DNA of 64,000 nucleotides from Octopus vulgaris (taxonomy: Eukaryota). Under the pieces are notes generated by a model. The model had not been told where the DNA came from. It did not search any database and was given only the letters and a program-made list of their open reading frames with translations. Shown here one piece after another: positions 1 to 61,503 of this stretch. The translations under genes and the position numbers were made by a program. The DNA lies in the NCBI GenBank assembly GCA_951406725.2, contig OX597819.1:130696001-130760000 (forward strand). Direction: 5' to 3'. Every line of letters begins with the position of its first letter. The stretch's first letter is position 1.

Positions 1-1121
1 TTTGACCATTCTTCAGCTAAAACAGTCTCCAGTTCTTGTAGTGATGATGGTGGAGGATATTGACTCCTTACTTGTTTTTCTAAAATGCACCATAAATGTT
101 CAGCAATATTGAGATCTAAGGACTGTGGTGGTCAGATAAGATGTTCACCTTCACTAGAATGTACCTCGTACCATTCAGTAACAACTTTAGCTGTGTGAAT
201 TGGTCCATTATCATCCTGAAAGATTGCGTTTCCCTCCGGATACAGTTCCGAAACCATAGGATGAATTTGATCAGACAAAATGCTTGAATAATCTTCACTA
301 TTAATTCTGCCTTGAAGGGAAACCATTGGGCAGCGAATTTCCAAGATATAGCCCCACCAGATAATCACAGACCCTTCTCCATGTTTAACAGTTGGAAGAA
401 GACAGTCTGGGTTAAATGCTTCTTTTAGCTGTCTCCACGCGTATACTCGGCCAGAGGTCGGAAATAAAGTAAAGAATGACTCGTTCGAGAAAATAACATT
501 TTTCCACTGCTTTAGGGACCAATTCTGTAGATATTTACTCAACTCTCAACGCTTTGCAACGTTTGTTTTTGAAAGGAGTGGTTTTCTGATTGCAGCCCTC
601 CCGGCAACTCCGGCTTTGTGCAGCTCCTGGTGAACAGTTTTTGTGGAAACTGGGTTCTCGAGGTGGTCATTAAGCTCTGCAGTAATTTTGGGAGCTGTAC
701 TTTTGTGATCCTTTCTAACAATTCGCGTAAGAATCCGACAGTTCCTATCTGAAAGTTTTGGTTTTCTTCCGGAGTTCTGTTTCGACCAGGAGGTTTTCCC
801 TCTTTCTCAAAGGCTGTCATTACTTTCACGACAGTAGTTCTTGATACACCAAACATTTCAGCTGTTTTTGTTACGCTAACGCTTGCCATACGAACACCAA
901 AAATTTGATCTCTTTGAAAGTCCGATAGATTTGTCATTTTAATGAATTTTAATTACCTTTTTCTAATGATATCTGAAAAGAAACAGCAATTTTAGCAAAA
1001 CATATTAAGCAACACTAATAATAAATCAAAAAACAAAAATAAGCAAGCTTCTGGCGGTTTTATAGATATTATAAAATTATGATGCCATGATGCTAGGTGT
1101 TTCCATTATTTTGTCCAACCC

Positions 1122-8060: not shown

Positions 8061-8952
8061 TTTTTTTTCTAGTTTCAGCTCAGAGCTGCGGCCATGCTGA
8101 TGCACCGCCGTTTTGTGCTACACTGTTATTACGACGAACCTCGTCTAATATGTGGCACTTGGTGAAGAATGGAGTTTGATATAGCTACTCTCATTTGCAC
8201 CTCTTGCCGTGAGGTAGGTTCATCTGGGACTCTTGACAGGAAGATGTCCAGCTTTGATATAAAAACCGATACATCTACTTTGTGCAAGTTCCTCAGACTC
8301 TTTAGGAGAATATTAAAAAGCTGTGGGCCCTTGAAACCCAGGCTGTTGCAGTAACTGGTCCTGAAGCATGATGGCATTGCTGGGATCTTTGGCACTATGC
8401 AGTGTCGTCCCGTTCTAGCATTGGTGTAGCTTACAATGCCAAATTTGGCACAATTCCTTCCAGGATCTTCCAGACATATATTACTGCATACCTCTCCCGT
8501 CTTCTCTCCAGGGAGTAGAGACTTAGCTGTTTCAACCTTTCCCAGTAGATGAGCTGTTGCAAAGAGATGATCTTCTTTGTGAATCTTCTCTGGATTGCTT
8601 CAAGGTCCGCTGTTAATTTTACACTGGTGGGTGACCATAGCTGTGAGCAGTAATCCAGGCGACTGAGGACGAATGTCCGCCAGAGGACCATCATGGTTTC
8701 CTTCTCTCTGGTTCTGAATGTTCTTAGGATCCACCCAAACAGCCGTCTGCACTTTGTCGCCATCCTGGTAATGTGCACTTGGAAAGAGGTATCATCAATC
8801 ATGTCGATATCCAGGTCCCTCACAGACTTAGGCTCTGGAATTGAAATTCCCTGTGGACCGGTGTATCCTGTAAGTTTAATATTCAGTTTTGGATGCTGGT
8901 AGCGCAGAGCCTGGAAATTTTCAGCATTAAAATGCAGATTATTATCCTCAGC

Positions 8953-8955
<3 letters not shown>
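8061..8955 (-). mobile_element. 3' fragment of CR1-type LINE (RT C-terminus plus 3'UTR)
   Basis: ORF 8431-9027 (FRTREKETMMVLWRTFVLSRLDYCSQLWSP...SLERRRERY) and ORF 8129-8395 match the C-terminus of the 56024-58447 ORF. 3' end GGCGGTGCATCAGCATGGCCGCAGCTCTGAGCTGAAACTAG. Confidence 0.92.
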
Positions 8956-9026
<71 letters not shown>

Positions 9027-9141
9027 TACATGTAGATATTTTTCTTTTCCTTTCTCTGTGTGTGTGATGTGTATGTGTCTGTGTAATCTTTCAGCATACA
9101 GGCAAGGCAATGCAGGCTACAAAAACATAACTGTATATATA

Positions 9142-9577: not shown

Positions 9578-12500
9578 TATCTCTCAAATCCTCCCCAACA
9601 TTCCTCCCCTTCACCTCTCAAATCCCCCCCTCTGGAATGTAAAACATTCCTCCCTCCCCTTCCTCCCCTTCACCTCTCAAATCCCCCTCTCTGGAATGTT
9701 CAACATTCCTCCCTCCCCTTCCTCCCCTTCACCTCTCAAATCCCCCTCTCTGGAATGTTCAACATTCCTTCCTCCCCTTCCTCCCCTTCACCTCTCAAAT
9801 CCCACTCTCTGGAATGTTCAACATTCCTCCCACCCCTTCCGACCCTTCATCTCTGAAATCCCCCTCTCTGGAATGTTCAGCATTCCTTCCTCTTCTTCCT
9901 CCCCTTCACCTCTCAAATCCCCCTCTCTGGAATGTTCAACATTCCTCCTTCCCCTTCCGACCATTCAACTCTCAAATCCCCCTCTCTGGAATGTTCAACA
10001 TTCCTCCCTCCCCTTCCTCCACTTCATCTCTGAAATCCCCCTCTCTGGAATGTTCAACATTCCTTCCTCTCCTTCCTCCCCTTCACCTCTCAAATCCCCC
10101 TCTCTGGAATGTTCAACATTCCTTCTTCCCCTTCCGACCCTTCAACTCTCAAATCCCCCTCTCTGGAATGTTCAACATTCCTCCCTCCCCTTCCTCCCCT
10201 TCATCTCTGAAATCCCCCTCTCTGGAATGTTCAACATTCCTCCCTCCCCTTCCGACCCTTCACCTCTCAAATCCCCCTCTCTGGAATGTTCAACATTCCT
10301 CCCTCCCCTTCCTCCCCTTCATCTCTGAAATCCCCCTCTCTGGAATGTTCAACATTCCTCCTTCCACTTCCGACCCTTCAACTCTCAAATCCCCCTCTCT
10401 GGAATGTTCAACATTCCTCCCCCCTTCCTCCCATTCACCTCTCAAATCCCCCTCTCTGGAATGTTCAACATTCCTCCCTCCCCTTCTTCCCCTTCACCTC
10501 TCAAATCCCCCTCTCTGGAATGTTCAACATTCCTCCCGACCCTTCCGACCCTTCACCTCTCGAATCCCACTCTCTGGAATGTTCAACATTCCTCCCACCA
10601 CTTCCGACCCTTCATCTCTGAAATCCCCCTCTCTGGAATGTTCAGCATTCCTTCCTCTTCTTCCTCCCCTTCACCTCTCAAATCCCCCTCTCTGGAATGT
10701 TCAACATTCCTCCTTCCCCTTCCGACACATTCACCTCTCAAATCCCCCTCTCTGGAATGTTCAACATTCCTCCCTCCCCTTCCTCCACTTCATCTCTGAA
10801 ATCCCCCTCTCTGGAATATTCAGCATTCCTTCCTCTCCTTCCTCCCCTTCACCTCTCAAATCCCCCTCTCTGGAATGTTCAACATTCCTTCTTCCACTTC
10901 CGACCCTTCAACTCTCAAATCCCCCTCTCTGGAATGTTCAACATTCCTCCCACCCCTTCCTCCCCTTCATCTCAAATACCCCTCTCTGGAATGTTCAACA
11001 TTCCTCCCTCCCCATCCGACCCTTCACCTCTCAAATCCCCCTCTCTGGAATGTTCAAAATTCCTCCCTCCCCTTCCTCCACTTCATCTCTGAAATCCCCT
11101 CTCTGGAATGTTCAACATTCCTCCTTCCAATTCCGACCCTTCAACTCTCAAATCCCCCTCTCTGGAATGTTCAACATTCCTCCCTCCCCTTCCTCCCATT
11201 CACCTCTCAAATCCCCCTCTCTGGAATGTTCAACATTTCTCCCACCCCTTCCGAACCTTCAACTCTCAAATCCCCCTCTCTGGAATGTTCACCATTCCTT
11301 CCTCCACTTCCTCCTCTTCACCTCTGAAATCCCCTACATGGAATGTTCAGCATTCCATCCTCCCCTTCCTCCCCTTCACCTCTCAAATCCCCCTCTCTGG
11401 AATGTTCAACATTCGTAACGCCACTTCCTAACCTCCACCTCTCAAAGACCCCTCTCTGGAATGTTCAACACTCCAACCTCACCTCCCTCCTCTTCTCCTC
11501 TCAAAACCCCACACTAGAATGTTCAACATTCCTTCCTCCCCTTCCTCCCCTTCACCTCTGAAATCCCCCTCACTGGAATGTTCAACATTCCTCCTTCCCC
11601 TTCCGACACTTCACCTCTCAAATCCCCCTCTCTGGAAAGTTCAACATTCCTCCCTCCCCTTCCTCCCCATCACCTCTCAAATCCCCCTCTCTGGAATGTT
11701 CAACATTCCTCCTTCCGCTTCCTCCCCTTCAACTCTCAAATCCCCCTCTCTGGAATGTTCAACATTCCTCCTTCCCCTTCCGACACTTCACCTCTCAAAT
11801 CCCCCTCTCTGGAATGTTCAACATTCCTCCCTCACCTTCCTCCCATTCATCTCTCAAATCCCCCTCTCTGGAATGTTCAACATTCCTCCCTCCCCTTCCT
11901 CCCCTTCACCTCTCAAATCCCCCTCTGTGGAATGTTCAACATTCCTCATTCTCCTTCCGACACTTCATCTCTCAAATCCCCCTCTCTGGAATGTTCCACA
12001 TTCCTCCCTCCCCTTCCTCCAAATCACCTCTCAAATCCCCCTCTCTGGAATGTTCAACATTCCTCCTTCCTCTTCCTCCCCTTCACCTCTCAAATCCCCC
12101 TCTCTGGAATGTTCAACATTCCTCCCTTCCCTTCCTCCCCTTCACTTCTCAAATCCCCTCTCTGGAATGTTCAACATTCCTCCTTCCCCTTCCGACACTT
12201 CACCTCTCAAATCCCCCTCTCTTGAATGTTCAACATTCCTCCCTTCCCTTCCTCCCCATCACCTCTCAAATCCCCCTCTCTGGAATGTTCAACATTCCTT
12301 CCTCCCCTTCCTCCACTTCATCTCTGAAATCCCCCTCTCTGGAATGTTCAACATTCCTCCTTCCACTTCCGACCCTTCAACTCTCAAATCCCCCTCTCTG
12401 GAATGTTCAACATTACTCCCTCCCCTTCCTCCCCTTCACCTCTCAAATCCCCCTCTCTGGAATGTTCAACATTCCTCCCTCCCCTTCCTCCCATTCACCT

Positions 12501-15136
12501 CCCAAATCCCTCTCTTTGGAATGTTCAACATTCCTTCCTCCCCTTCCTCCCCTTTACCTCTCAAATCCCCCTCTCTGGAATGTTCAACATTCCTCCCTCC
12601 CCTTCCTCCACTTCACCTCTGAAATCCCCCTCTCTGGAATGTTCAACATTCCTCCCTCCCCTTCCTCCCCTTCACCTCTCAAATTCCCCTCTCTGGAATG
12701 CTCAACATTCCTTCCTCCCCTTCCGACTCTTCAACTCTCAAATCCCCCTCTCTGGAATGTTCAACATTCCTTCCTCCCCTTCCTCCCCTTCACCTCTCAA
12801 ATCCCACTCTCTGGAATGTTCAACATTCCTCCCACCCCTTCCGACCCTTCATCTCTGAAATCCCCCTCTCTAGAATGTTCAGCATTCCTTCCTCTTCTTC
12901 CTCCCCTTCACCTCTCAAATCCCCCTCTCTGGAATGTTCAACATTCCTCCTTCCCCTTCCTCCCCTTCAACTCTCAAATCCCCCTCTCTGGAATGTTCAA
13001 CATTCCTCCTTCCCCTTCCGACACTTCACCTCTCAAATCCCCCTCTCTGGAATGTTCAACATTCCTCCCTCCCCTTCCTCCCCATCACCTCTCAAATCCC
13101 CCTCTCTGGAATGTTCAACATTCCTTCCTCCCCTTCCTCCAGTTCATCTCTGAAATCCCCCTCTCTGGAATGTTCAACATTCCTCCTTCCACTTCCGACA
13201 CTTCAACTCTCAAATCCCCCTCTCTGGAATGTTCAACATTCCTCCCTCCCTCCCCCTCCCTCTCACCTCTGAAATCCCCCTCTCTGGAATGTTCAACATT
13301 CCTCCCATTCACCTCCCAAATCCCTCTCTCTGGAATGTTCAACATTCCTTCCTCCCCTTCCTCCCCTTCACCTCTCAAATCCCCCTCTCTGGAATGTTCA
13401 ACATTCCTTCCTCCCCTTCCTCCCCTTCACCTCTCAAATCCCCCTCTCTGGAATGTTCAACATTCCTTCCTCCCCTTCCTCCCCTTCACCTCTCAACACC
13501 CCTCTCTGGAATGTTCAACATTCCTTCCTCCCCTTCCGACTCTTCAACTCTCAAATCCCCCTCTCTGGAATGTTCAAAATTCCTCCCTCCCCTTCCTCCC
13601 CTTCACCTCTCAAATCCCCCTCTCTGGAATGTTCAACATTCCTTCCTCCCCTTCCTCCCCTTCACCTCTCAAATCCCCCTCTCTGGAATGTTCAACATTC
13701 CTTCCTCCCCTTCCTCCCCATCACCTCTGAAATCCCCCTCTCTGGAATGTTCAACATTCCTCCCTCCCCTTCCTCCCCTTCACCTCTCAAATCCCCCTCT
13801 CTGGAATGCTCAACATTCCTCCTTCCCCTTCCGACTCTTCAACTCTCAAATCCCCCTCTCTGGAATGTTCAACATTCCTTCCTCCCCTTCCTCCCCTTCA
13901 CCTCTCAAATCCCACTCTCTGGAATGTTCAACATTCCTCCCTCCCCTTCCTCCCCTTCATCTCTGAAATCCCCCTCTCTGGAATGTTCAACATTCCTCCT
14001 TCCACTTCCTCCCCTTCACCTCTCAAATCCCCCTCTCTGGAATGTTCAACATTCCATCCTCCCCTTCCTCCCCTTCACCTCTCAAATCCCCTCTCTGGAA
14101 TGTTCAACATTCCTCCCTCCCCTTCCTCCACTTCATCTCTGAAATCCCCCTCTCTGGAATGTTCAACATTCCTCCCATTCACCTCCCAAATCCCTCTCTC
14201 TGGAATGTTCAACATTCCTTCCTCCCCTTCCTCCCCTTCACCTCTCAAATCACCCTCTCTGGAATGTTCAACATTCCTTCCTCCCCTTCCTCCCCTTCAC
14301 CTCTGAAATCCCCCTCTCTGGAATGTTCAGCATTCCTTCCTCCACTTCCTCCCCTTCACCTCTCAAATCCCCCTCTCTGGAATGCTCAACATTCCTCCTT
14401 CCCCTTCCGACTCTTCAACTCTCAAATCTCCCCTTCCTCCCCTTCACCTCTGAAATCCCCCTCTCTGGAATGTTCAACATTCCTTCCTCCCCTTCATCCA
14501 CATCACCTCTCAAATCCCCCTCTCTGGAAAGTTCAACATTTCTCCCTCCCCTTCCGACATTTCACCTCTCAAATCCCCCTCTCTGGAATGTTCAACATTC
14601 CTTCCCTCCCCTTCCTCCACTTTACCTCTCAAATCCCCCTCTCTGGAATGTTCAACATTCCTCCTTCCCCTTCCTCCCCTTCACCTCTCAAATCCCCCTC
14701 TCTGGAATGTTCAACATTCCTTCCTCCCCTTCCTCCCCTTCACCTCTCAAATCCCCCTCTCTGGAATGTTCAACATTCCTTCCTCCCCTTCCTCCCCATC
14801 ACCTCTGAAATCCCCCTCTCTGGAATGTTCAACATTCCTCCATCCCCTTCCTCCCCTTCACCTCTCAAATCCCCCTCTCTGGAATGCTCAACATTCCTCC
14901 TTCCCCTTCCGACTCTTCAACTCTCAAATCTCCCCTTCCTCCCCTTCACCTCTCAAATCCCCCTCTCTGGAATGTTCAACATTCCTCCCTCCCCTTCCTC
15001 CAGTTCATCTCTGAAATCCCCCTCTCTGGAATGTTCAACATTCCTCCCTCCCCTTCCTCCACTTCATCTCTGAAATCCCCCTCTCTGGAATGTTCAACAT
15101 TCCTCCTTCCACTTCCGACCCTTCAACTCTCAAATC
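9578..15136. repeat. 59-bp tandem satellite/minisatellite, roughly 90+ copies, truncated by an assembly gap
   Basis: Unit TGGAATGTTCAACATTCCTCCCTCCCCTTCCTCCCCTTCACCTCTCAAATCCCCCTCTC (59 nt); strongly C/T-rich on the plus strand. Confidence 0.97.
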
Positions 15137-15236
15137 NNNNNNNNNNNNNNNNNNNNNNNNNNNNNNNNNNNNNNNNNNNNNNNNNNNNNNNNNNNNNNNN
15201 NNNNNNNNNNNNNNNNNNNNNNNNNNNNNNNNNNNN
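15137..15236. other. Assembly gap (100 N)
   Basis: Run of n characters. Confidence 1.
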
Positions 15237-21036: not shown

Positions 21037-21290
21037 GATTTTTTAGAAATTTCTATCGGTTTGTTTCGAGACGCATAAATTATAATGGTTATTGACAATT
21101 TTGTCTTTTTTTTCGACATATTTGGCATTAGAATTTTTCTTTTGCCCTTATTTTGTAAATTATTTATAAATTTAACCTTTAAAGGTATTTTTTGATATGC
21201 TGGCCATTGATAAAAAATTTTTCTCGAAAAAAATTTTTATCCTACATTAGTTATATATATATATATATATGTACTTTCTTGTTTGGATTA

Positions 21291-21361
<71 letters not shown>

Positions 21362-23845: not shown

Positions 23846-24518
23846 ATAAATACGTAGGTGTACAAACGACTGGAGGTTAAATTGAGGTATTTACTGCTTC
23901 CGTCTGTTGAGCATTACTCGAAGTTTCGAAGACAGAACCAAATTAATTCGATCCCACAGAGTCGATTATGAAACCTTAAGTAATCCGAAGAAATGAAAAA
24001 TATATACACACATGTATACATTCATACATACACTCCTATGAACACACACACACATACACACATTATTACATACTGGTTTTCAAATAAATTCACCCGTTCT
24101 TTTTCTTTTTGTTTGGTATTTTGTTTGGTATTTTTGGTATTTTACTTGTTTCAGTCACTGGACTGCGGCCATGCTAGGGCACAACCTTGAAGAATTTTAG
24201 TCGAACGAATCGAACCCAGTATCCGTTTTTTTTAAAGCCTAGCATTTATTCCATCGGTCTTTGTGTAAGTATATATAAAGTCGTGGACTGGCTTGGTGAT
24301 TCGCCTTCAACCCAAGCGGGTACGTGATGCTGACAAGCCACAAAAATGGCGAAACATCGATGTCCATCACTCCAAATGAGATCGAAGGTGATTTATCTCA
24401 CCTGTATAGAACTAAGGTGTTTTAACATCGGCAGAGTGAGAGTTTATATATTCCGCTGCGCCATGGCAGCCACCGGAAAATACACAAAGCATAGACGTAA
24501 GTATATGTATTTAATTTC

Positions 24519-28263: not shown

Positions 28264-28316
<53 letters not shown>

Positions 28317-28321
<5 letters not shown>

Positions 28322-28412
28322 TAATCCAAACAAGAAAACACAAAAAAACACAGCAACGCGAGGACGTGGAACAAATAAAGTATTATTGGACGCTCAGGAA
28401 AGAAGGGAAGAA
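28317..28412 (-). mobile_element. Short copy of the (TA)n-embedded element seen at 59356-59725
   Basis: AAAGTTAATCCAAACAAGAAA...GAGGACGTGGAACAAAT...GGACGCTCAGGAAAGAAGG shared with 59356-59447; a third stub lies inverted at ~21272-21296. Confidence 0.8.
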
Positions 28413-28415
28413 GGA

Positions 28416-29227: not shown

Positions 29228-29825
29228 CAAGATGGTCAACCCATGTGTAGATATTTCTTTTACTTAAATTCAATTAACATTTCTTTTCTTATTTCAGAAA
29301 TTTAATACTCTTAACATTTAAGGTAGTATTGAAGCTAATTTATACGTGAAGATAGTATGAGTGAAATAAGTAAAGCAATTGAAAAGCTATTCAAGAAAGG
29401 GAAAACTCCTAGTGAGATTTTCAAGATTTTGAAACCCACTGTCAGCAGATCAGGAATCTATAAAGTAACCAAACGGATAAAAGAGACCGGTTCTTGGCTA
29501 CCAAGAGTGAGAACTACTACCCCTCGACCACTGAGAACTCAAAAACTCATCAAAAACACCAAAGAAAAGATCGGGCGCCAACCATAAACTAGCTTCAGAA
29601 GCTGGTACAAGCTATGGAACTATGCATAATTTGTTGAAGAATGATCTTCAGTTATTCCCATTCAAGATACCAAAAGAAAGTCTTTTGTCTGAAGCCACAA
29701 GGAAAAAGACTACAAAGAGCAAAGCTTCTTCTGCAAAAGCTAAGAAATGGCACGCAGCCACCAATACTGTACACATGATGAAAGGTTATTCAGTGTGCAA
29801 GCGTGCCACAATCCACAAAATGATC

Positions 29826-29863
<38 letters not shown>

Positions 29864-30496
29864 TATAAATCAAGAGGACATTCCTGTTGAACAAAGATTA
29901 TCCTTTCGGCGTCACAAACCTGTACTCATAATGGTGTGGGCAGGTGTGACCTCAAATGGCTTAAAAACTCCTCTAATCCTCATTGAAGCTAATGTGAAAA
30001 TCAACCAATATGTTTATTTGGACGTGTTAAAAGATAGAGTAGTCCTTTGGGTTATTGCAACAATGGGGGACAAAGGTGTAACTCTCCAACAAGATGGCGC
30101 AACATCTCATACGGCTAAAACGTCCCAGAATGGTGTCAAGAGAATTTCAAGGCGTTCTGGTCGAAAAAGTTCACCCCCCCCCCTTCCCTTTTCACCCGAC
30201 CTGAATCCGATGGACTTTGGCATATGGCCTATCCTTTGTGTTAATTCTCACACAAGTCTCAGAGCTCTTGAACACCATATGCGAAAATACTGGGACGAAA
30301 TATCCGAAGAAACTGTTCGCACCACTTGCTCCCAAGCTGTTCCTAGACTCCGCCAAAGGTGGATGTATTGAAAATTGAATATGTCATCTGAATCTACATT
30401 TTTTGGGCTTTATTTGGGCATATTTAAATTTGATATATCATTTTGTATCGAGATGTTATTTGAATAAATATGTCTCCACTTCATCTGATCACCCTG
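29228..30496 (+). mobile_element. Decayed Tc1/mariner-superfamily transposon, probably DD37D (maT-like)
   Basis: HTH N-terminus in ORF 29357-29587. THDE, IMVWAGVT, QQDGATSHT and SPDLNPMDFGIW motifs (third catalytic residue D). Weak TIRs TA|CAAGATGGTCA... and ...TGATCACCCTG|TA. (AT)n inserted at ~29827-29861. Confidence 0.85.
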
Positions 30497-31140: not shown

Positions 31141-31173
<33 letters not shown>

Positions 31174-31257
31174 GGTCCCGGGTTGATTCGGGGTTAACCA
31201 CAGTAAATAAGGTACTCAATACATAGCAGATTAAAATTAATTTATTATATAGAAGGA

Positions 31258-31306
31258 GCTTCTACAGGACTAGAACTGTTTCATTCAAGAGAAATCTTCA
31301 GGAAGC
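31258..31306 (-). ncRNA. Type-I hammerhead ribozyme
   Basis: GCTTC-CTGAAGA-T-TTC/tctt/GAA-T-GAA-ACAG/ttctagtc/CTGT-A-GAAGC: complete core, stems I-III, GUA cleavage triplet. Confidence 0.8.
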
Positions 31307-31359
31307 ATTCCTGAAGATTTCTCTTGAATGAAACTTCCTGAAGATTTCTCTTGAATGAA

Positions 31360-31408
31360 GCTTCCTGAAGATTTCTCTTGAATGAAACAGTTCTAGTCCT
31401 GTAGAAGC
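31360..31408 (+). ncRNA. Type-I hammerhead ribozyme (inverted copy)
   Basis: Same sequence as 31258-31306, read on the plus strand. Confidence 0.8.
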
Positions 31409-31532
31409 TCCTTCTATATAATAAATTAATATATATATATATATATATATAATAATAAATATTAGGGAATAAATCCAAATTTACAGGGAAAAAATCAGAT
31501 TTAGGATTAAATCCAATTTTATAGTAAATATT

Positions 31533-31663
31533 ATATAATATTATTAGAGACAAAACCACTATTTTGCAAAACAAACAAGGAAAGACTTAATCAATACATA
31601 AAATTTTATGTATTGAAAAAGTCTTTCCTTGTTTGTTTTGCAAAATAGTGGTTTTGTCTCTAA

Positions 31664-31674
<11 letters not shown>
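31533..31674. repeat. ~140-bp near-perfect palindrome ending a (TA)n-embedded element
   Basis: TATTAGAGACAAAACCACTATTTTGCAAAACAAACAAGGAAAGACTT..TCAATACATAAAA|TTTTATGTATTGA..AAGTCTTTCC...GTCTCTAATA. Adjacent 31451-31530 has an inverted homolog at ~59095-59175. Confidence 0.9.
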
Positions 31675-31725
<51 letters not shown>

Positions 31726-33795: not shown

Positions 33796-35074
33796 CGAGG
33801 GACGTTCAATAAGTAATGCCTCTGACCCACTTGCAGTTGTTTGATCTAGCTGAAATTTTGCATGTGCAATTATTTATAGATTAAGTGGCAAATTACAGCG
33901 CTGAGCTAATTGTGGTTTCTGATTTACAGGTGTTTGAACTGAGTCAAGTGTGAAATGGAGCCTGTTGAGTGTCGAGCAGTGATCCGGTTTTTGTATTTGA
34001 AAGGACGCACACCACGAGAGACTTTTGATGAAATGAAAGTAACTTATGAAGATGATGCCCCATCATATGACCTTGTAAAACGCTGGCATCGTGAATTCAA
34101 ACATGGTCGGAACTCTGTGGAAACAACTCCCAGATCTGGTCACCCCCTTCTGCCATTGATGAGGCATCTGTCCGTCAAGTTGAGGCTGCCATTTTGGAAG
34201 ATCGATGCATAACTATTCACCAAATAGCCCATAAGGTCAAGATTAGTACCGGGTATGTGGAAACTATCATTCATGACCATTTGCATATGCAAAAGGTGTC
34301 TGCCAGATGGATTCCCAGGCTGCTCACACCTTTCCAGAAGCAAGAACGCGTCGAGTGCTCGAGGATGAATTTGGAGATGTGCCAAGAAGATGAGTCAAAA
34401 TTTTTCAAAAGACTGATTACACAGGATGAAATCCGGGTCCATCACTATGATTCAGAGACCAAAGCCCAGTCAATGCAGTGGAAGCACCGTGACTCACCTC
34501 CTCCAAAGAAGGTAAGGGTGCAGCCCTCCGCTGGCAAGGTCATGCTCACCGTCTTCTGGGACCAGGACGGAGTAGTGATGACAGATTTCCTGGCAAAGGG
34601 TACCACAATTACAGGAGCCTATTATGCTTCACTTTTGAGGAAATTATGAGAAGCTATCAAAATCAAGAGGTGGGGCAAGATCAGCAAAGGCATCCTCCTC
34701 CTGCAGGACAACGCTCCGGTTCACAACTCGCGTGTCGCCAGATCAGAAGCACAGGCGTGCTGCTATGAACTCCTCCCCCATCCCCCTACGCTCCTGACCT
34801 TGCACCCTCTGATTTTCACCTCTTCCCAGCCATGAAGTTTTGAAAGGAAAGCATTTCACAGATGATGCAGCCTTGATTTCTGACGTCACGTCGTGGTTGG
34901 AGGACCAAGCTGGGGTCTTCTACAAAAACGGTCTCCAGAGCTGCATCAAACGATGGGAGAAATGCGTCACTCTGGGTGTTTCCTATGTAGAAAAAAACTA
35001 ATAAGTGTGCCAAGTTTCGTTGCTCTACTGCTATGGGAAGTGGGTCAGGGGCATTACTTATTGAACGCCCCTCG
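33796..35074 (+). mobile_element. Full-length mariner (DD34D, irritans/Himar1-like) transposon, pseudogenised
   Basis: TIRs TA|CGAGGGACGTTCAATAAGTAATGCCTCTGACCCACTT and inverse ...CCCTCG|TA. ORFs MEPVECRAVIRFLYLKG, SARWIPRLL, ITQDE, PSAGKVMLTVFWD; after a TGA stop, LLQDNAPVH and PDLAPSDFHLF. Confidence 0.95.
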
Positions 35075-42922: not shown

Positions 42923-43210
42923 CATCATCATCATCATCATCATCATCATTATTTCGCTTAGGCATAACGATACTAATAACTTGGTGTTGGATTTCAAAAT
43001 ACATATGCTTCAGAACGGAGCCTCAGTCAAGTACAGAGCAGTAATAAGAAATTACAATGACATGATTATAAGAAATTATGCCCGGAACTTCATTAGCTTA
43101 CAGCTGTTTCTGCTATAAAATGCAATGCACTCATAGTTGAATATTTGTGCTTCATCGGAACTTCAAAACTGCAATTGTATTTGAGAAAGCGTTTACATCT
43201 GTCTGTGTGT

Positions 43211-51692: not shown

Positions 51693-51779
51693 GTAGGTCC
51701 CAGGTTGATTCGGGGTTAACCACAGTAAGTAAGGTACTCAATACATAGCAGAGTAAAATTAATTTATTATATAGAAGGA

Positions 51780-51828
51780 GCTTCTACAGGACTAGTACTG
51801 TTTCATTCAAGAGAAATCTTCAGGAAGC
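51780..51828 (-). ncRNA. Type-I hammerhead ribozyme
   Basis: AGCTTC-CTGAAGA-TTTCTCTTGAAT-GAA-ACAG/tactagtc/CTGT-A-GAAGCT. Confidence 0.8.
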
Positions 51829-52343
51829 TATTTAACAAGAATTGTATTAGCATTTATACATTTAGGCAGGTTTAAAGGAGTGGTGGTGGGGGACTTTTTG
51901 GGGGTAGGCATAGCGCAAAATATCATACTTGGGGGAGTGGTCAAGGAGTCATTGGTAAGTTAGATGAAAGAATAGATAAATAAAAAAATAAATAAAAAAA
52001 ATAAAAAAAAAAAAAAAATAAAAAAAATAAAAAATAAAAAATAAAAGAATAAAAAAATATATAAAATAAAAAAAAATAAAAAAAAAATAAATAAAATAAA
52101 TAAAATAAAATAAAAATATAAAAAATATAAAAAATATATATAAAAAATATATATATAAAAAATATATATATAAAAATATATATATATAAAAAAAAATATA
52201 TATATATAAAAAAAGGGGGGATAGAGTTATAGGTAAATGAGGAGATTCTCACTTATACCAATGCACACATGTATACGTATCTACACACACATACATACAT
52301 AACATATATATACACACACATATATATACATACATATATATAC

Positions 52344-52376
<33 letters not shown>

Positions 52377-53206
52377 CACACATACATACATATCTACATA
52401 CTCGCATACATACACCCGCCCGCATATACAAATTTATACACATGCACATGCCTATACCTGTCTACACATACACACACGTATATATGCATACACTCACTCC
52501 CATGCATGCACGCATACACACATGTATATATATATATATATATATATACCCACGACCACATATACATATATACACATAAAAAAAGTGGGAGTGAGTGTAT
52601 GCATATATACGTGTGTGTATGTGTAGACAGGTATAGTACATGTGCATGTGTATAAATTTGTATATGTGCAGATATGTATAGTATGTAGATATGTATGTAT
52701 GTGTGTATATATATGTATGTATATATATATATATGTATATATATGTATGTATATATATGTGTGTGTATATATATGTGTATGTATATGTGTGTGTAGATAC
52801 ATATACATGTGTGTATTGGTATAAGTGAGTCTCTCATTTACCTATAACTCTATCCCCCTTTTTTATATATATATTTTTATATATATATATTTTTATATAT
52901 ATATTTTTTATATATATTTTTATATATATATTTTATATTTTATATTTTTATTTTATTTTTATTTATTTTTTATTTTTTTTATTTTTTTATTTTATATATT
53001 TTTATTCTTTTATTTTATTTTTATTTTTTTATTTTTTTATTTTTTTTTTTTATTTATATTTTTTTATTTATCTATTCTTTCATCTAACTTACCAATGACT
53101 CCTTGACCACTCCCCCAAGTATGATATTTTGCTATGCCTACCCCCCCACCACCACTCCTTTAAACCTGCCTAAATGTATAAATGCTAATACAATTCTTGT
53201 TAAATA

Positions 53207-53249
53207 GCTTCCTGAAGATTTCTCTTGAATGAAACAGTACTGTAGAAAC
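53207..53249 (+). ncRNA. Minimal type-I hammerhead with palindromic stem III
   Basis: GCTTC-CTGAAGA-TTTCTCTTGAAT-GAA-ACAGTACTGT-A-GAAAC; one mismatch in stem I. Confidence 0.7.
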
Positions 53250-53448
53250 TCCTTCTATATAAATATATATATATATATATATCTTACATACATACATAAA
53301 TACATACATACACACATATGCATACATCAATGTTATATACCTATAGATACATGGGTAAATAGATGTAATAGATGAATATTTATACATATATTATATATAT
53401 ATAAATATATATATATATATACATGCATATATATATATATGTATATTC

Positions 53449-56023: not shown

Positions 56024-58447
56024 ATGACAAGATGTGAACGAGGACAGGCGAGGTCCCTCCTGAACGTCATCAACACCCTGTACATGGAGCAGGTAATACT
56101 CCAACCAACCAGGGCAGGTAACACACTGGATCTCTGCTTCACAAATGACATGGATCTCATCCATAATGTGAAAGTGACACCGACACTACTCTCGGATCAC
56201 AACATGATAGAGCTGACCATGTACGGGCCAAAAGAGAGCACGGACATGCAGCCTACAAGAAACCCTCAAAATCTTTCCAGCTTGAACTACCATAAGGCAA
56301 ACTGGAAACAAATTGAGAAAGAGATCCTCAAACAAAACTGGCCTAAATGTCTCTCCTCGCCAGACATCGACGTGAAACTTCAACAATTCATGTCTGTAAT
56401 GCAAGCCATATGCTACAAATGTGTCCCAGAGAGAAAGGCCACTGTACACAAGAACAAAATCCCCAGAGAGAGGAAAATTTTAATGAGACGGCGTACGAAA
56501 TTTTCAAATCGCCTAAACAAACAGATTGAAAGCAGTGAAAAGTCCCGCCTAAAAATAAAAATAAAACTGTTGGAAATCGAAAAATGTCTGCAACTCTCCC
56601 ATGAAAAAGAAAGAGCAGACAAAGAAGCCTGGGCTATAGAAAACATAAAATCTAACCCCAGAGCTTTCTACAGGTATGCCAAAGAAACAGCTACAGTGCA
56701 CTGTAGAATAGGGCCACTCCTCGAAAAGGATGGCACACTTACAGGAAAACCAATGAGGGTAAGTGAAATACTGAATGAGCAATTCAAGAGTGTTTTCACT
56801 CCACCCCTTGGGCATCTCCAAATCACCAATCCAACTGACTTTTTTACCACTGCAGATATAAAATCAGAGGCGGCGACGATAGATTACATCGATATAAAGG
56901 AAGACGATGTAACCAAGGCTATAGATGAAATGAAAACAGACTCAGCTACTGGCCCCGATGGATTCCCGGCAATCCTCCTAAAAGCATGTAAGAGAGTCCT
57001 AGCAAGACCACTGCAGTTCCTCTTTCAGAGCTTCCTTGCAGCTGGCAAACTTCCAGGAAAACTGAAGGAAGGTAAAATATGCCCCATTCATAAAGGAGGT
57101 AGCAGAGCGGAAGCCAAGAACTATAGACCTATCTCTCTGACCTCACACATCAGCAAGGTCATGGAACGAATAGTCAGAAGGAAGCTGATCACCTTCCTTG
57201 AAGAGAATGACTTGCTGCCCGACACCCAACATGGTTTCCGACCAGGGAGAAGCTGTTTAACTCAGCTCCTACAACACTATGACTGGGTGCTGAAACGGCT
57301 GCTCAACCACTCAAATGTGGAAGTGATATATCTCGACTTTGCAAAGGCCTTTGATAAAGTCGATCATGGAATGATATGTCACAAACTGCGTGATCTCAAC
57401 ATAGTTGGAAAAATGGGAGAATGGCTTCATGACTTTCTGAAGGATAGAAGTCAGGTGGTAGTAGCCAATGGGGCCACCTCCATTAACACACAAATAGTGA
57501 GCGGTGTTCCGCAGGGCACTGTTCTGGGACCACTACTGTTCATAATGGCCCTCTCAGACATGCCCTCAGCCACGCAGAGAGCCACGATCACAAGTTATGC
57601 AGATGATACAAAAGTTTCACAGGAAATACAGAACCCTGAGGACACTAAACACCTGCAATGTGAGCTGGACGAAATATACAAGTGGGCTGAAAAGAATAGC
57701 ATGCAGTTCAATGCTGGAAAGTTTCAAGCTTTATACTATCAGTATGCAAAACTGAATGCAATACCCAATGAATACACTGGACCCGGAGGGATTGCAATCC
57801 CAGAGGCACAATCAGTGCGTGACCTGGGTATTCACATGAGTGATGACGCGACCTTTCATGTACATGTTGCTAAACTGACAATGAAATGTAGACGGCTGAC
57901 TGGATGGATTCTTAGAACCTTTAGAACAAGAGAACAAGAAACCATGATGGTCCTCTGGAAGACACTTGTCCTAAGCCACTTTGACTATTGCTCTCAGCTA
58001 TGGTCACCATCCAGTGTCAAGTTGATCACAGAACTTGAGGCGATCCAACGAAGCTACACAAAGAAGATAGCCTCTATGCAGAATGTAAGCTACTGGGAAA
58101 GACTCAAGAGATTAAAATTATATTCCCTGGAGCGTAGGCGGGAAAGATATGCCATAATATACATCTGGAAGATCCTGGAGGGAAGTGTCCTGAACTTTGG
58201 CATCGAGAGTTACGCAAATGCCAGAACTGGGCGCCACTGCGTGGTGCCTAGGACTCCAAACCTGCCTTCAAGATGTAGGACAAGATTCTGTGATAGCCTG
58301 GGCTTCCGAGGCCCACAGCTCTTCAATATCCTCCCGAAGAACCTGAGAGACCTGCATGGGGTGGATACAGATGTCTTTAAAATAAGCTGGATCTCTTCCT
58401 GTCAGGTGTCCCAGATGAACCAACTTCACGGCAGGAGGGACAGATGA
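56024..58447 (+). CDS. LINE ORF2: C-terminal part of the APE endonuclease plus complete reverse transcriptase
   Basis: PTRAGNTLDL...SDH (APE end), GPDG, NYRPISLTS, QHGFRPGRSC, YLDFAKAFDKVDH, GVPQGTVLGPLLF and YADD. 807 open codons, with a probable 1-nt frameshift near 58385. Confidence 0.92.
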   Translation: MTRCERGQARSLLNVINTLYMEQVILQPTRAGNTLDLCFTNDMDLIHNVKVTPTLLSDHNMIELTMYGPKESTDMQPTRNPQNLSSLNYHKANWKQIEKEILKQNWPKCLSSPDIDVKLQQFMSVMQAICYKCVPERKATVHKNKIPRERKILMRRRTKFSNRLNKQIESSEKSRLKIKIKLLEIEKCLQLSHEKERADKEAWAIENIKSNPRAFYRYAKETATVHCRIGPLLEKDGTLTGKPMRVSEILNEQFKSVFTPPLGHLQITNPTDFFTTADIKSEAATIDYIDIKEDDVTKAIDEMKTDSATGPDGFPAILLKACKRVLARPLQFLFQSFLAAGKLPGKLKEGKICPIHKGGSRAEAKNYRPISLTSHISKVMERIVRRKLITFLEENDLLPDTQHGFRPGRSCLTQLLQHYDWVLKRLLNHSNVEVIYLDFAKAFDKVDHGMICHKLRDLNIVGKMGEWLHDFLKDRSQVVVANGATSINTQIVSGVPQGTVLGPLLFIMALSDMPSATQRATITSYADDTKVSQEIQNPEDTKHLQCELDEIYKWAEKNSMQFNAGKFQALYYQYAKLNAIPNEYTGPGGIAIPEAQSVRDLGIHMSDDATFHVHVAKLTMKCRRLTGWILRTFRTREQETMMVLWKTLVLSHFDYCSQLWSPSSVKLITELEAIQRSYTKKIASMQNVSYWERLKRLKLYSLERRRERYAIIYIWKILEGSVLNFGIESYANARTGRHCVVPRTPNLPSRCRTRFCDSLGFRGPQLFNILPKNLRDLHGVDTDVFKISWISSCQVSQMNQLHGRRDR

Positions 58448-58596: not shown

Positions 58597-58625
58597 TATA
58601 TATATATATATATGTATATATGAAT

Positions 58626-58810
58626 GACAGAGTATCTTATGAACTTCATTACCTTACAGGTGTTACAGTTATTTCCGAACTGCTGAAGTACATCTCATGT
58701 TTGAAGCTCGGTTGAAGCTCTAAGATGCTATTCAGGCACTCAGCTATGAGTCAACTGCGTCTTATATCCGAAACAGCTGTAAGCTAGTGAAGTCCATAAG
58801 ATAACTGTCT
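58626..58810. mobile_element. Short element with ~39-bp inverted ends and a decayed hammerhead-like motif
   Basis: GACAGAGTATCTTATGAACTTCATTACCTTACAGGTGTT is the inverse of AACAGCTGTAAGCTAGTGAAGTCCATAAGATAACTGTC. GAAACAGCTGTA forms a palindromic stem III. Related stub at 43084-43110. Confidence 0.6.
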
Positions 58811-59170
58811 ATTGCTTTGTCTTTTCAATTTTCTGTTACCGTTCGGAACCCGACAAACGCATCGTCCTGTAACATATGTATAGTGAGTTCTACCCCAGGT
58901 TATTATTATCCCAATGCCTAAGCGATATATATATACGTTTTTATTATTTTTTTTTTGCAACTTACTTAATCATCGGTATATTATTGTTATTTTAATTTTA
59001 ATATTTCTATTATATGTAATTTTCTAGATGCTGTAATTTAATTATTCATTTTGAATTGGCAAAAGGTGGGGTTTTTCTAATTTATATATATATATTATAT
59101 TGTGTGAAATTTGATTTAGTATTTCTAAATTGAATTTTTCCCTGTAAGTTAGGATTAATATTCCCTCAAA

Positions 59171-59207
<37 letters not shown>

Positions 59208-59288: not shown

Positions 59289-59355
<67 letters not shown>

Positions 59356-59360
<5 letters not shown>

Positions 59361-59725
59361 TAATCTAAACAAGAAAGCACAAAATAACATAACAACGCGA
59401 GGACGTGGAACAAATATAGTATTATTGGACGCTCAGGAAAGAAGGAAAGAAGGAGGGTTTAACGTTTCGAGCGGAGCTCTTCGTCGGAAACATAGGAAAA
59501 GGAAAGATCCAGAGAAAGGAAGACAGAGGAAAAAAATCGCCAACGATACACATGCGGTCACATTTTGAAAGACTGGAAGGAAATGAGTGAAGAAAGGTTT
59601 TTTCAAAAGTCGGGCATGTTGAGAAGTAGTGAATGTCTGTGTAGGTGTAAGTGGTGGCGACACAAGTGGAAAAGCGGAAGTAGAAGAAAGGTAAAAGAGG
59701 ACGAGGAAAAAGTGGAAGAGTCACG
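59356..59725 (-). mobile_element. (TA)n-embedded Penelope-like terminal fragment
   Basis: Shares its end with 28317-28412 and carries a hammerhead-like motif. Confidence 0.65.
59457..59491 (-). ncRNA. Minimal hammerhead variant
   Basis: GTTT-CCGACGA-A-GAGC/tcc/GCTC-GAA-ACGT-T-AAAC; U4C change and a non-optimal GUU triplet. Confidence 0.5.
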
Positions 59726-59874
59726 GACAAATTTTTTTTTATATATATATATATATATCACAGTTGTCAATTGTGGAACATGACTGTCACTACTGTTACA
59801 TAATCCCGATGATTGTGTAACACATGAAAGTACTAGTTTTATCACAATAATTATATATTCTATTATCAAACATA

Positions 59875-60036
59875 GGCGCAGGAGTGGCTGTGTGGTAAGT
59901 AGCTTGCTAACCAACCACATGGTTCCGGGTTCAGTCCCACTGCGTGGCATCTTGGGCAAGTGTCTTCTGCTATAGCCCCGGGCCGACCAATGCCTTGTGA
60001 GTGGATTTGGTAGGCGGAAACTGAAAGAAGCCTGTC

Positions 60037-60443: not shown

Positions 60444-60485
<42 letters not shown>

Positions 60486-60489
60486 TGTA

Positions 60490-60865
60490 TAATACATTTC
60501 TAAATATCTCAGAGAGATATATGCAGTAGTGGTACCATATCGCTGAGATATTTAGAAATGTATTATTTCAATTTTTGTAATCAGTGGATTTATTTCCCCA
60601 GAATTCTTATATGTTTACAAGAGCTAGATAGGCATCTCCAACTAGCAAGCCATGCTACTCCAGACTGATGACGAGCAAAGACTCAGAAACTAGTCTCTGG
60701 GTGCAGGCTTAGCTGGGTGGGGGTGCTTATCTCCCCTTTGTAAATATAAGGACACAGGAAATGTGTGAAGGCCGACAGGAAGCGTTGCTGCTTCCTAGGG
60801 CTAAATAGCAGTAGTGTGATTCCCTTCATGGGACTGTCACATTAAGTTGACAGTATACAACTACT
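60490..60865 (+). mobile_element. Structured non-coding hammerhead-bearing element between (TA)n tracts
   Basis: 5' inverted repeat AATACATTTCTAAATATCTCAG/CTGAGATATTTAGAAATGTATT, a central hammerhead, and 3' hairpins AGGAAGC/GCTTCCT and ACTGTCA/TGACAGT. Confidence 0.65.
60660..60700 (+). ncRNA. Minimal type-I hammerhead ribozyme
   Basis: CCAGA-CTGATGA-C-GAG/caaaga/CTC-A-GAA-ACTAGT-C-TCTGG: canonical core, palindromic stem III, GUC triplet. Stem I can extend (AAGCC/GGCTT). Confidence 0.8.
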
Positions 60866-60891
60866 ATATATATATATATATATTTTTTTAA

Positions 60892-60937
60892 TCTAGTTTC
60901 AGCTCACGAGCTGTGGCCATGCTGGGGCACCGCCATT
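60892..60937 (-). mobile_element. Isolated ~46-bp 3' terminus of the CR1-type LINE
   Basis: AATGGCGGTGCCCCAGCATGGCCACAGCTCGTGAGCTGAAACTAGA. Confidence 0.85.
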
Positions 60938-61503
60938 ACATATATATATGTATGTATATATGTGTATATGTATATATACAAGCAACCATGTGGTTGCAAA
61001 GCGAGTTTATTAATCACGCTACTACCACATGCTGTTTACGATTTTTACTACCGTTGTCTGCAATTCTGCAACGAAATAAGTATTCAGTTGGAGTTAAATT
61101 ATTTTTATTAAATATTTTATGAACCATATAAGCTTATGGAAACTGTTTGTGTAACATATAAAAGCAGTTTTAAGCGATTCGTGTATTTACATTGGGGCAT
61201 TGAAACAAATGATATATTTACTAATGCTAAGTGTCTGGAAATGGATATTATCTATATAACTAATTTTATTGTTAAATCCGCTTTGTTTTAAGGCTACATT
61301 ATAATAAGGAGCTGCTTTATTAAGGACAGACCTCTTGGATGATGTACTGTACAACCGTTCAGAACCCGATGTTTATTTTTCATTTGTAAACTTACTTATT
61401 TTATGATTAACAATTTTGAATGCTTGATGGCAAAAATCATGGACAAAGAAATATATTCCACCAACTACGTCCATAGCTTATTGTAGCAATTTAGCTCAAG
61501 AAA

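Follow-up and report, generated by a model that had tools for sequence, protein, structure and literature searches.

A candidate solo retrozyme-like element carrying a canonical type I hammerhead motif between (TA)n runs in Octopus vulgaris

What kind of element is the short repeat that carries a hammerhead-like core between two (TA)n runs in the 64-kb stretch of Octopus vulgaris DNA analysed here (contig OX597819.1; hereafter the window)? A preliminary description had proposed a canonical CUGAUGA/GAAA core with a GUC triplet, a palindromic stem III and an extendable stem I. We located a type I hammerhead on the plus strand at 60659-60701, with cleavage predicted between 60695 and 60696; it is called here, after the start of its core, the 60665 motif. 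The GUC triplet is present, C17 being position 60695, as is the palindrome ACTAGT that makes up helix III (60689-60694), and stem I proved extendable, the 6-bp helix I (60659-60664 with 60696-60701) continuing into a rod of about 60604-60751. Both core strands were also found, CTGATGA at 60665-60671 and GAAA at 60686-60689 (GAA at 60686-60688), but helix II (60672-60675 with 60682-60685) has a C·A mismatch at its base in place of the G10.1-C11.1 pair, only three of its four positions pairing, and the core is therefore not fully canonical. Loop 2 is the hexaloop CAAAGA (60676-60681), and internal loop 1 consists of a 5' strand at 60652-60658 that ends in UAC (IL1.C8 at 60658) and a 3' strand UGCA at 60702-60705 (IL1.U1 at 60702). 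The locus thus shows the CUGANGA, GAAA and NUH elements of a canonical type I hammerhead, its geometry of a 6-bp helix I, a four-position helix II and a hexaloop 2, and all three docking nucleotides, IL1.U1, IL1.C8 and L2.A6.

One explanation would be a chance hammerhead-like string in an old DNA fold-back. Using descriptors written after the motif had been seen, we observed that the one combining a palindromic helix III with five Watson-Crick helix I pairs matched the window at the 60665 site only, and that the palindromic-helix-III descriptor matched none of 300 block-wise dinucleotide shuffles of the window. A descriptor of canonical geometry alone gave 11 matches in 300 shuffles and none once six loop-docking letters were added; the loop pattern matched none of 100 shuffles, and the chance of the six tested docking letters, calculated from composition, was 2.7e-4. 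The loop letters also agree with an independent published motif. What speaks for chance is the mismatched base of helix II together with the silence of Rfam, which returned no hammerhead match at the gathering score over the whole window or at E<=10 over segments of 601 and 91 nt. The RF00163 Hammerhead_1 gathering score was not reached, plausibly because the Rfam model expects helix III to be 4 bp long and includes the G-C pair that the 60665 motif lacks. Rfam matches to microRNA and snoRNA families were rejected as low-complexity or hairpin noise. These data show that the hammerhead motif is real and far beyond chance, and the chance explanation is essentially refuted.

The motif had also been described as a minimal hammerhead, a reading that had to be given up, as it contains the loop 1-loop 2 tertiary nucleotides that the minimal hammerheads of Penelope-like elements (PLEs) lack. 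Minimal PLE hammerheads have a short helix I, a long helix II, an extra base after A9 and a conserved G10.1-C11.1 pair (PMC4209133), and metazoan PLE hammerheads are described, in the accounts cited here, without tertiary loops (PMC6155905, PMC7761336). The palindromic helix III of the 60665 motif is a feature of the minimal type; it also occurs in canonical metazoan motifs (PMC4209133) and therefore is not diagnostic. Judged by its sequence, the motif falls outside the PLE minimal-hammerhead definition and is instead a standard animal canonical type I hammerhead.

The closest likeness of the docking loops is to Schistosoma, whose structure has loop 2 CAAAUA and loop 1 UCCA:GUAC, with key contacts at U1, C8 and A6 of loop 2 (PMC2632901). 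Six of eight letters in loop 1 and five of six in loop 2 are shared with the octopus motif, including U1, C8, L2.C1 and L2.A6, and loop 1 of the latter (UGCA:CUAC) differs from the schistosome version by a compensatory swap. Helix lengths are those of Schistosoma SM-alpha (RF00163), except that helix III has 2 bp and a 2-nt loop in the 60665 motif and 4 bp in the Schistosoma-type hammerhead. Unlike SM-alpha, the octopus element has no G10.1-C11.1 pair, Rfam match, Pol III B box or homology outside the core.

A second, unrelated canonical type I hammerhead lies in the window at 24264-24510 (+; core at 24330). Its loop 1, GUAC:UCCA, is exactly of the schistosome type; it has loop 2 CAAAAA, a G10.1-C11.1 pair, a 10-nt palindromic helix III and a core change of G8 to A, and its unit of 232 nt, with a 10-nt direct repeat at its ends (24265-24274 and 24497-24506), sits inside a SINE-like repeat. 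This unit is a cleaner candidate for a retrozyme monomer than the 60665 element. When the two motifs are aligned, both partners differ in 9 of 14 pairs and pairing is kept in 27 of 28 cells, a comparison of two sequences only. When the loop pattern was run against bacterial assemblies it retrieved 18 loci, 13 of which contain Rfam Hammerhead_1 matches (15 places, 13 of them above the gathering score). Searched with a model built from the 60665 and 24330 motifs, 12 of the 18 loci yielded matches at E<=0.01, 13 in total, and all but one of these coincided with Hammerhead_1 places; the test is partly circular because the loci had been chosen by a related pattern. In this comparison, which rests on loop and helix II columns only, position 10.1 is G in every one of the 15 comparator motifs that Rfam recognises, and C·A at 10.1-11.1 occurs in none of them; two of the 18 loci share with the 60665 motif a loop 1 whose 5' strand has a C facing G. 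Apart from two short matches, 26 and 28 nt long with E values of 0.002 (at the core pattern) and 0.09, no homology to these loci was found.

Hammerheads in bacterial assemblies call for a remark of their own. In five marine bacterial assemblies we noted eleven contigs of less than 500 bp in which Rfam Hammerhead_1 motifs recur every 336-339 nt, accompanied by weak tRNA-like sequence; they resemble schistosome-type SM-alpha repeats, and contamination is the most likely source. Two decayed type I hammerheads 6.6 kb apart on a contig of a Nitrospirales MAG, one of them beside a (TCTG)n run, are possibly eukaryotic sequence in the bin.

Would the 60665 copy cleave? In the best predicted monomer fold the core pairs with the helix III strand and C17 is buried, the pairs of helix I having probabilities of 0.04-0.45. 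An active-like monomer fold lies 4.3 kcal/mol above this one. Pairing of ACUAGU between two molecules would contribute -4.8 kcal/mol, but the active dimer did not emerge when two copies were co-folded without constraints. The buried cleavage site of the monomer and a helix III of 2 bp round a 2-nt loop support, in these models, the dimer-type regulation that had been proposed, and cleavage as a dimer is plausible. A U·U pair at the base of helix II is tolerated in the cleaving axolotl ribozyme HHR_Amex2 (PMC7229834). Only one of nine Xenopus dimers tested was reported to cleave (bioRxiv 10.64898/2026.07.22.740005). With a single hammerhead, a C·A at 10.1-11.1 and a favoured inactive monomer fold, we would expect weak cleavage, or cleavage only with a partner in trans; as modelled, the copy is probably weakly active or dead.

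We then considered the element around the motif, which measures 377 nt (60489-60865; about 350-377 nt), has 41% GC and lies between (TA)n runs at 60446-60481, the putative insertion target, and 60865-60883. Its 5' edge is an inverted repeat that had been given as 22 bp and is in fact a perfect 24 bp (60489-60512 with 60543-60566), possibly a cDNA fold-back at the 5' junction; unlike the rod, it has no wobble pairs. The first bases of its 30-nt spacer (60513-60542) form a micro-repeat of 60545-60551. An AT-rich linker of 30% GC (60567-60603) leads to the long imperfect rod of about 150 nt (~60604-60751, 46% GC), which holds the hammerhead at its tip. Two 3' hairpins had been announced; at least two are there, though up to four small ones are predicted: one at 60770-60802, with a 7-bp inner stem (60777-60783 with 60790-60796), and hairpins 2-3 at 60812-60862, with an alternative 7-bp hairpin at 60833-60854. 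The 3' end is AC-rich and finishes in CTAC beside the TA run. The right run passes into an unrelated short interspersed-repeat tail (60880-60938), which has 10 other matches in the window, and beyond the TA runs the flanking sequence consists of ordinary dispersed repeats.

Folding of the 385-nt region gave a z score of -8.95, and of -6.48 on the plus strand and -3.66 on the minus strand when the inverted repeat was left out. The rod folds with a z score of -5.6, at -72.7 kcal/mol on the plus strand versus -57.2 on the minus strand; the 3' part scored -3.1 on the plus and -3.7 on the minus strand. The 75 columns of the rod arms comprise 51 Watson-Crick pairs, 8 G-U, 4 A-C, 6 other combinations and 6 gaps, so that the excess of G-U over A-C (8 versus 4), taken from the sequence, is weak. 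Terminal redundancy or a clear target-site duplication was not found, the only internal repeats being one of 7 and one of 9 nt. The TGA of the hammerhead core closes an open frame of 54 codons. The idea that its product is a GIY-YIG C-terminus found no support in Pfam, homologue and Atlas searches: the 54-aa frame, whose shortness makes this a weak test, had no Pfam match, no credible homologue and no Atlas match above 0.78, and its one weak, unnamed match (E 3e-4, 34%) falls in four mid-protein stretches.

How far the element reaches upstream depends on the reading of its 5' part, since GC steps from 28-30% over 60489-60603 to 46% over 60604-60865 and the 5' boundary of the ribozyme element is therefore uncertain. 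We infer, from contiguity only, that 60489-60603 belongs to the same element as the ribozyme. The GC step would also suit a composite, in which a ribozyme unit of about 260 nt (60604-60865), itself still retrozyme-like, came to adjoin a distinct AT-rich fold-back fragment (60489-60603), either through template switching or by separate insertions into one and the same TA site. In its favour, the other canonical element of the window has a unit of 232 nt, and the 5' part compared with the AT-rich element end at 59070-59177 beat 1989 of 2000 shuffles. Against it, an nhmmer profile of the AT-rich ends failed to recover the 5' part at E<10, each of the 25 best among 2556 background windows scored above it, and the rod may reach 60592. 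The similarity is borderline, and we did not accept the 5' part as the 3' end of another family of the window; a composite seems improbable.

The element at 58615-59177 to which that AT-rich end belongs is itself (TA)n-flanked and has a 40-nt fold-back (58633-58672 with 58764-58803); relatives lie at 42950-43140 (-) and 31452-31560 (-), and its AT-rich 3' end is 76% alike in a fold-back element at 31450-31675.

Which known class does the element resemble? Retrozymes are units of 150-450 nt, below 50% GC and highly self-paired (PMC7229834), and the octopus element agrees with this description in size, GC and self-pairing and has no protein-coding capacity as far as the weak negative searches on the 54-aa frame tell. 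With the metazoan non-LTR retrozymes of Acropora, Mytilus and axolotl, as described in the same source, it shares a type I hammerhead with a 6-bp helix I and docking loops, a weak palindromic helix III, a non-coding character and coexistence with PLE-type hammerheads. It differs from them in having no head-to-tail tandem repeats at the locus, no terminal redundancy and a C·A at the base of helix II, and its 24-bp 5' fold-back and (TA)n flanks are not among the retrozyme features described in the accounts drawn on here (PMC7229834; bioRxiv 10.64898/2026.07.22.740005). Solo monomers are a recognised, evenly dispersed class of retrozymes (bioRxiv 10.64898/2026.07.22.740005), and with no tandem at the locus we therefore do not file the element as a non-LTR retrozyme, treating it only as a candidate solo copy.

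We think it fairly probable that the element is a solo copy of a small, non-autonomous retrozyme-like element of the metazoan non-LTR type. The schistosome-like docking loops, the paired changes against the 24330 motif (in two sequences), the coincidence of the two-motif model with Hammerhead_1 places (partly circular), the U·U precedent and the agreement in size and composition all favour it, as do the junctions: PLEs characteristically favour microsatellites and have inverted 5' segments (PMC8557442), an AC-rich stem-loop start and AT-rich targets are known for PLE reverse transcription (PMC11167929), and further (TA)n-flanked fold-backs occur in this repeat-rich window. The suggestion that the element is retrozyme-like or Penelope-linked is supported. 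Several observations weigh against the solo-copy reading. By blastn there was no second copy of 60489-60865 and no tandem repeat within the 64-kb window, so that the second family which had been proposed is putative. In classical PLE inversions it is the 3' end of the element that is copied, whereas the inverted arm here derives from internal 5' sequence. The Rfam miss, a C·A seen in no comparator, the failure of co-folding to give an active dimer and the weak G-U excess count on the same side, as does the outcome of the protein scan: the 147 ORFs scanned, out of 347 that passed the filter in the window, and 3 more gave no PLE protein.

The matches of that scan were LINE-type reverse transcriptase (RT), Tc1/mariner pieces and a zinc knuckle. 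An 807-codon LINE-type RT ORF lies at 56024-58447 (+), its best named relative being from Argonauta hians (59% identity), and a fragment of such an ORF at 8132-9090 (-). Broken Tc1/mariner-type transposase remnants occur at 135-952 (-) and 33943-34646 (+), both with Pfam matches, and at 29535-30368 (+), by eye. A 59-bp C-rich minisatellite of about 90 copies occupies 9601-15136, next to a 100-N assembly gap (15137-15236).

The main rival, which we regard as possible but unlikely, is that the element is the 3' end (pseudo-LTR, pLTR) of a heavily 5'-truncated autonomous PLE carrying a canonical hammerhead, the AT-rich 5' part being the end of an ORF or 3' UTR. PLEs account for 6.83% of the Octopus vulgaris assembly and fall into 190 families, according to a report whose main text does not mention hammerheads (PMC13282606). 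Most PLE copies are 5'-truncated. Retrozymes have been proposed to derive from PLE pLTRs (bioRxiv 10.64898/2026.07.22.740005). Both the (TA)n target and a 5' inversion are PLE signatures (PMC8557442), and the element does have (TA)n on both sides, a 24-bp inversion and an open frame running up to the ribozyme TGA. It shares a microsatellite target, and perhaps a 5' inversion, with EN+ PLEs such as Neptune and Poseidon, and type I topology and a palindromic helix III with their pseudo-LTR minimal hammerheads (PMC4209133). EN+ PLEs may also bear a tail of 30-40 bp at one end. The core, moreover, can be read in PLE style, as CUGAUGA-C, a G-C closing pair, an extra A and GAAA; this reading, with its extra nucleotide after A9 and G10.1-C11.1 directly before GAAA, requires one more inserted A, and one row of a published minimal-hammerhead alignment does have AGAAA (PMC4209133 supplement). 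The tertiary loops, with which metazoan PLE hammerheads are not described, argue against a truncated PLE, as does the 54-aa frame with its single weak match. Unlike in EN+ PLEs, the inversion is short and of internal sequence, not of the 3' end, and no RT or GIY-YIG sequence was found attached to the element or upstream of it, which a very short truncation could hide.

Another alternative is a hammerhead repeat resembling Schistosoma SM-alpha, SINE-like and driven by Pol III, or else a single-copy ribozyme domesticated for a regulatory role. The closeness of the loops to the schistosome motif and the single copy in the window would fit. In searches with the general A- and B-box consensus both strands lacked a B box, and the A-box-like strings all carried one mismatch; there was no tRNA, nothing relevant came from the sigma-70 search, and the surroundings of the insertion are those expected of a recent mobile copy. 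We consider both versions very improbable.

If the element is a solo retrozyme-like copy, its origin can be sketched by analogy with published families, in which read-through transcription, dimer cleavage and RtcB circularisation are described (PMC7229834, PMC7761336). Source copies elsewhere, in tandem arrays or PLE pseudo-LTRs, would be read through; adjacent hammerheads would use their ACUAGU palindromes to build an intermolecular helix III, with cleavage after GUC; and an RtcB-type ligase of the host would close the monomers into circles. A PLE reverse transcriptase/GIY-YIG protein might then nick a TA microsatellite and prime cDNA at the AC-rich 3' end, and a short snap-back at the end of the cDNA might leave the 5' inverted repeat. 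PLE reverse transcription is reported to start in an AC-rich stem-loop with AT-rich DNA as target (PMC11167929); inverted arms with a one-sided tail belong to the PLE traits, and octopus Naiads prefer (TA)n (PMC8557442 and its supplement).

The element had been said to share its architecture with a hammerhead family at 31 and 52 kb while being unrelated to it in sequence. The lack of relationship was confirmed, blastn finding no similarity; of the common architecture the (TA)n target and fold-back stood and the rest did not, the other family having long inverted copies, a PLE-like one-sided tail and a different hammerhead. Its 3' end is likewise AC-rich and ends in CTAC beside a TA run, a likeness that is suggestive only. 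This PLE-like family (51693-53262 and 31172-31430), with inverted arms, one-sided tail and (TA)n flanks, carries hammerheads at 51823(-), 53212(+), 31301(-) and 31365(+), in which U·U stands at the base of helix II, and the 31 kb copy has local 27-nt duplications.

A relaxed census returned five palindromic-helix-III hammerhead-like motifs in the window (24330, 53212, 59806, 60665 and, on the minus strand, 59487), against a shuffle mean of 0.21; beyond these there are the 31/52 kb copies and a decayed motif near 58736, seen by eye within the (TA)n-flanked element at 58615-59177. The 60665 element has no homology outside the core to the segments at 24.3, 52, 58.7 and 59.8 kb. At 59487 (-), within a (TA)n-flanked element of about 59355-59720, lies a textbook PLE minimal hammerhead with the extra base after A9, the G-C pair, GAAACGUU and a U4-to-C change; partial copies of this element are at 28316-28415 and 21270-21296. 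A decayed hammerhead with an AGTACT palindrome (59759-59875, +; core 59806) lies 860 nt upstream of the 60665 motif on the same strand. At least five hammerhead-bearing repeat types besides the 60665 element are thus present, and such motifs are therefore common in the host genome.

The element belongs to a known and abundant class and is ordinary in kind: hammerhead-bearing repeats number thousands in many animal genomes, and several unrelated ones lie within these 64 kb. We found no description of cephalopod retrozymes in the openly accessible literature; the family may already be catalogued in subscription papers, Repbase, Dfam or supplements. The host genome seems to hold canonical retrozyme-type hammerheads that Rfam misses. 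We also raise, tentatively and as a doubtful proposal, that this is a canonical-hammerhead retrozyme copy with a Penelope integration scar (TA target, AC-rich 3' start and 5' cDNA fold-back), possibly including a template switch onto a PLE 3' end. Mobilisation of retrozymes by PLEs has so far rested on co-occurrence and pLTR phylogeny. If the pattern recurs across copies, the junctions of this one could link retrozymes to the Penelope machinery; were the proposal true and the scar and 3' end shared by most copies, the family would be a first from cephalopods in the sources searched, marked by C·A in helix II, and the shared features would be a direct genomic footprint of PLE enzymes mobilising animal retrozymes in trans.
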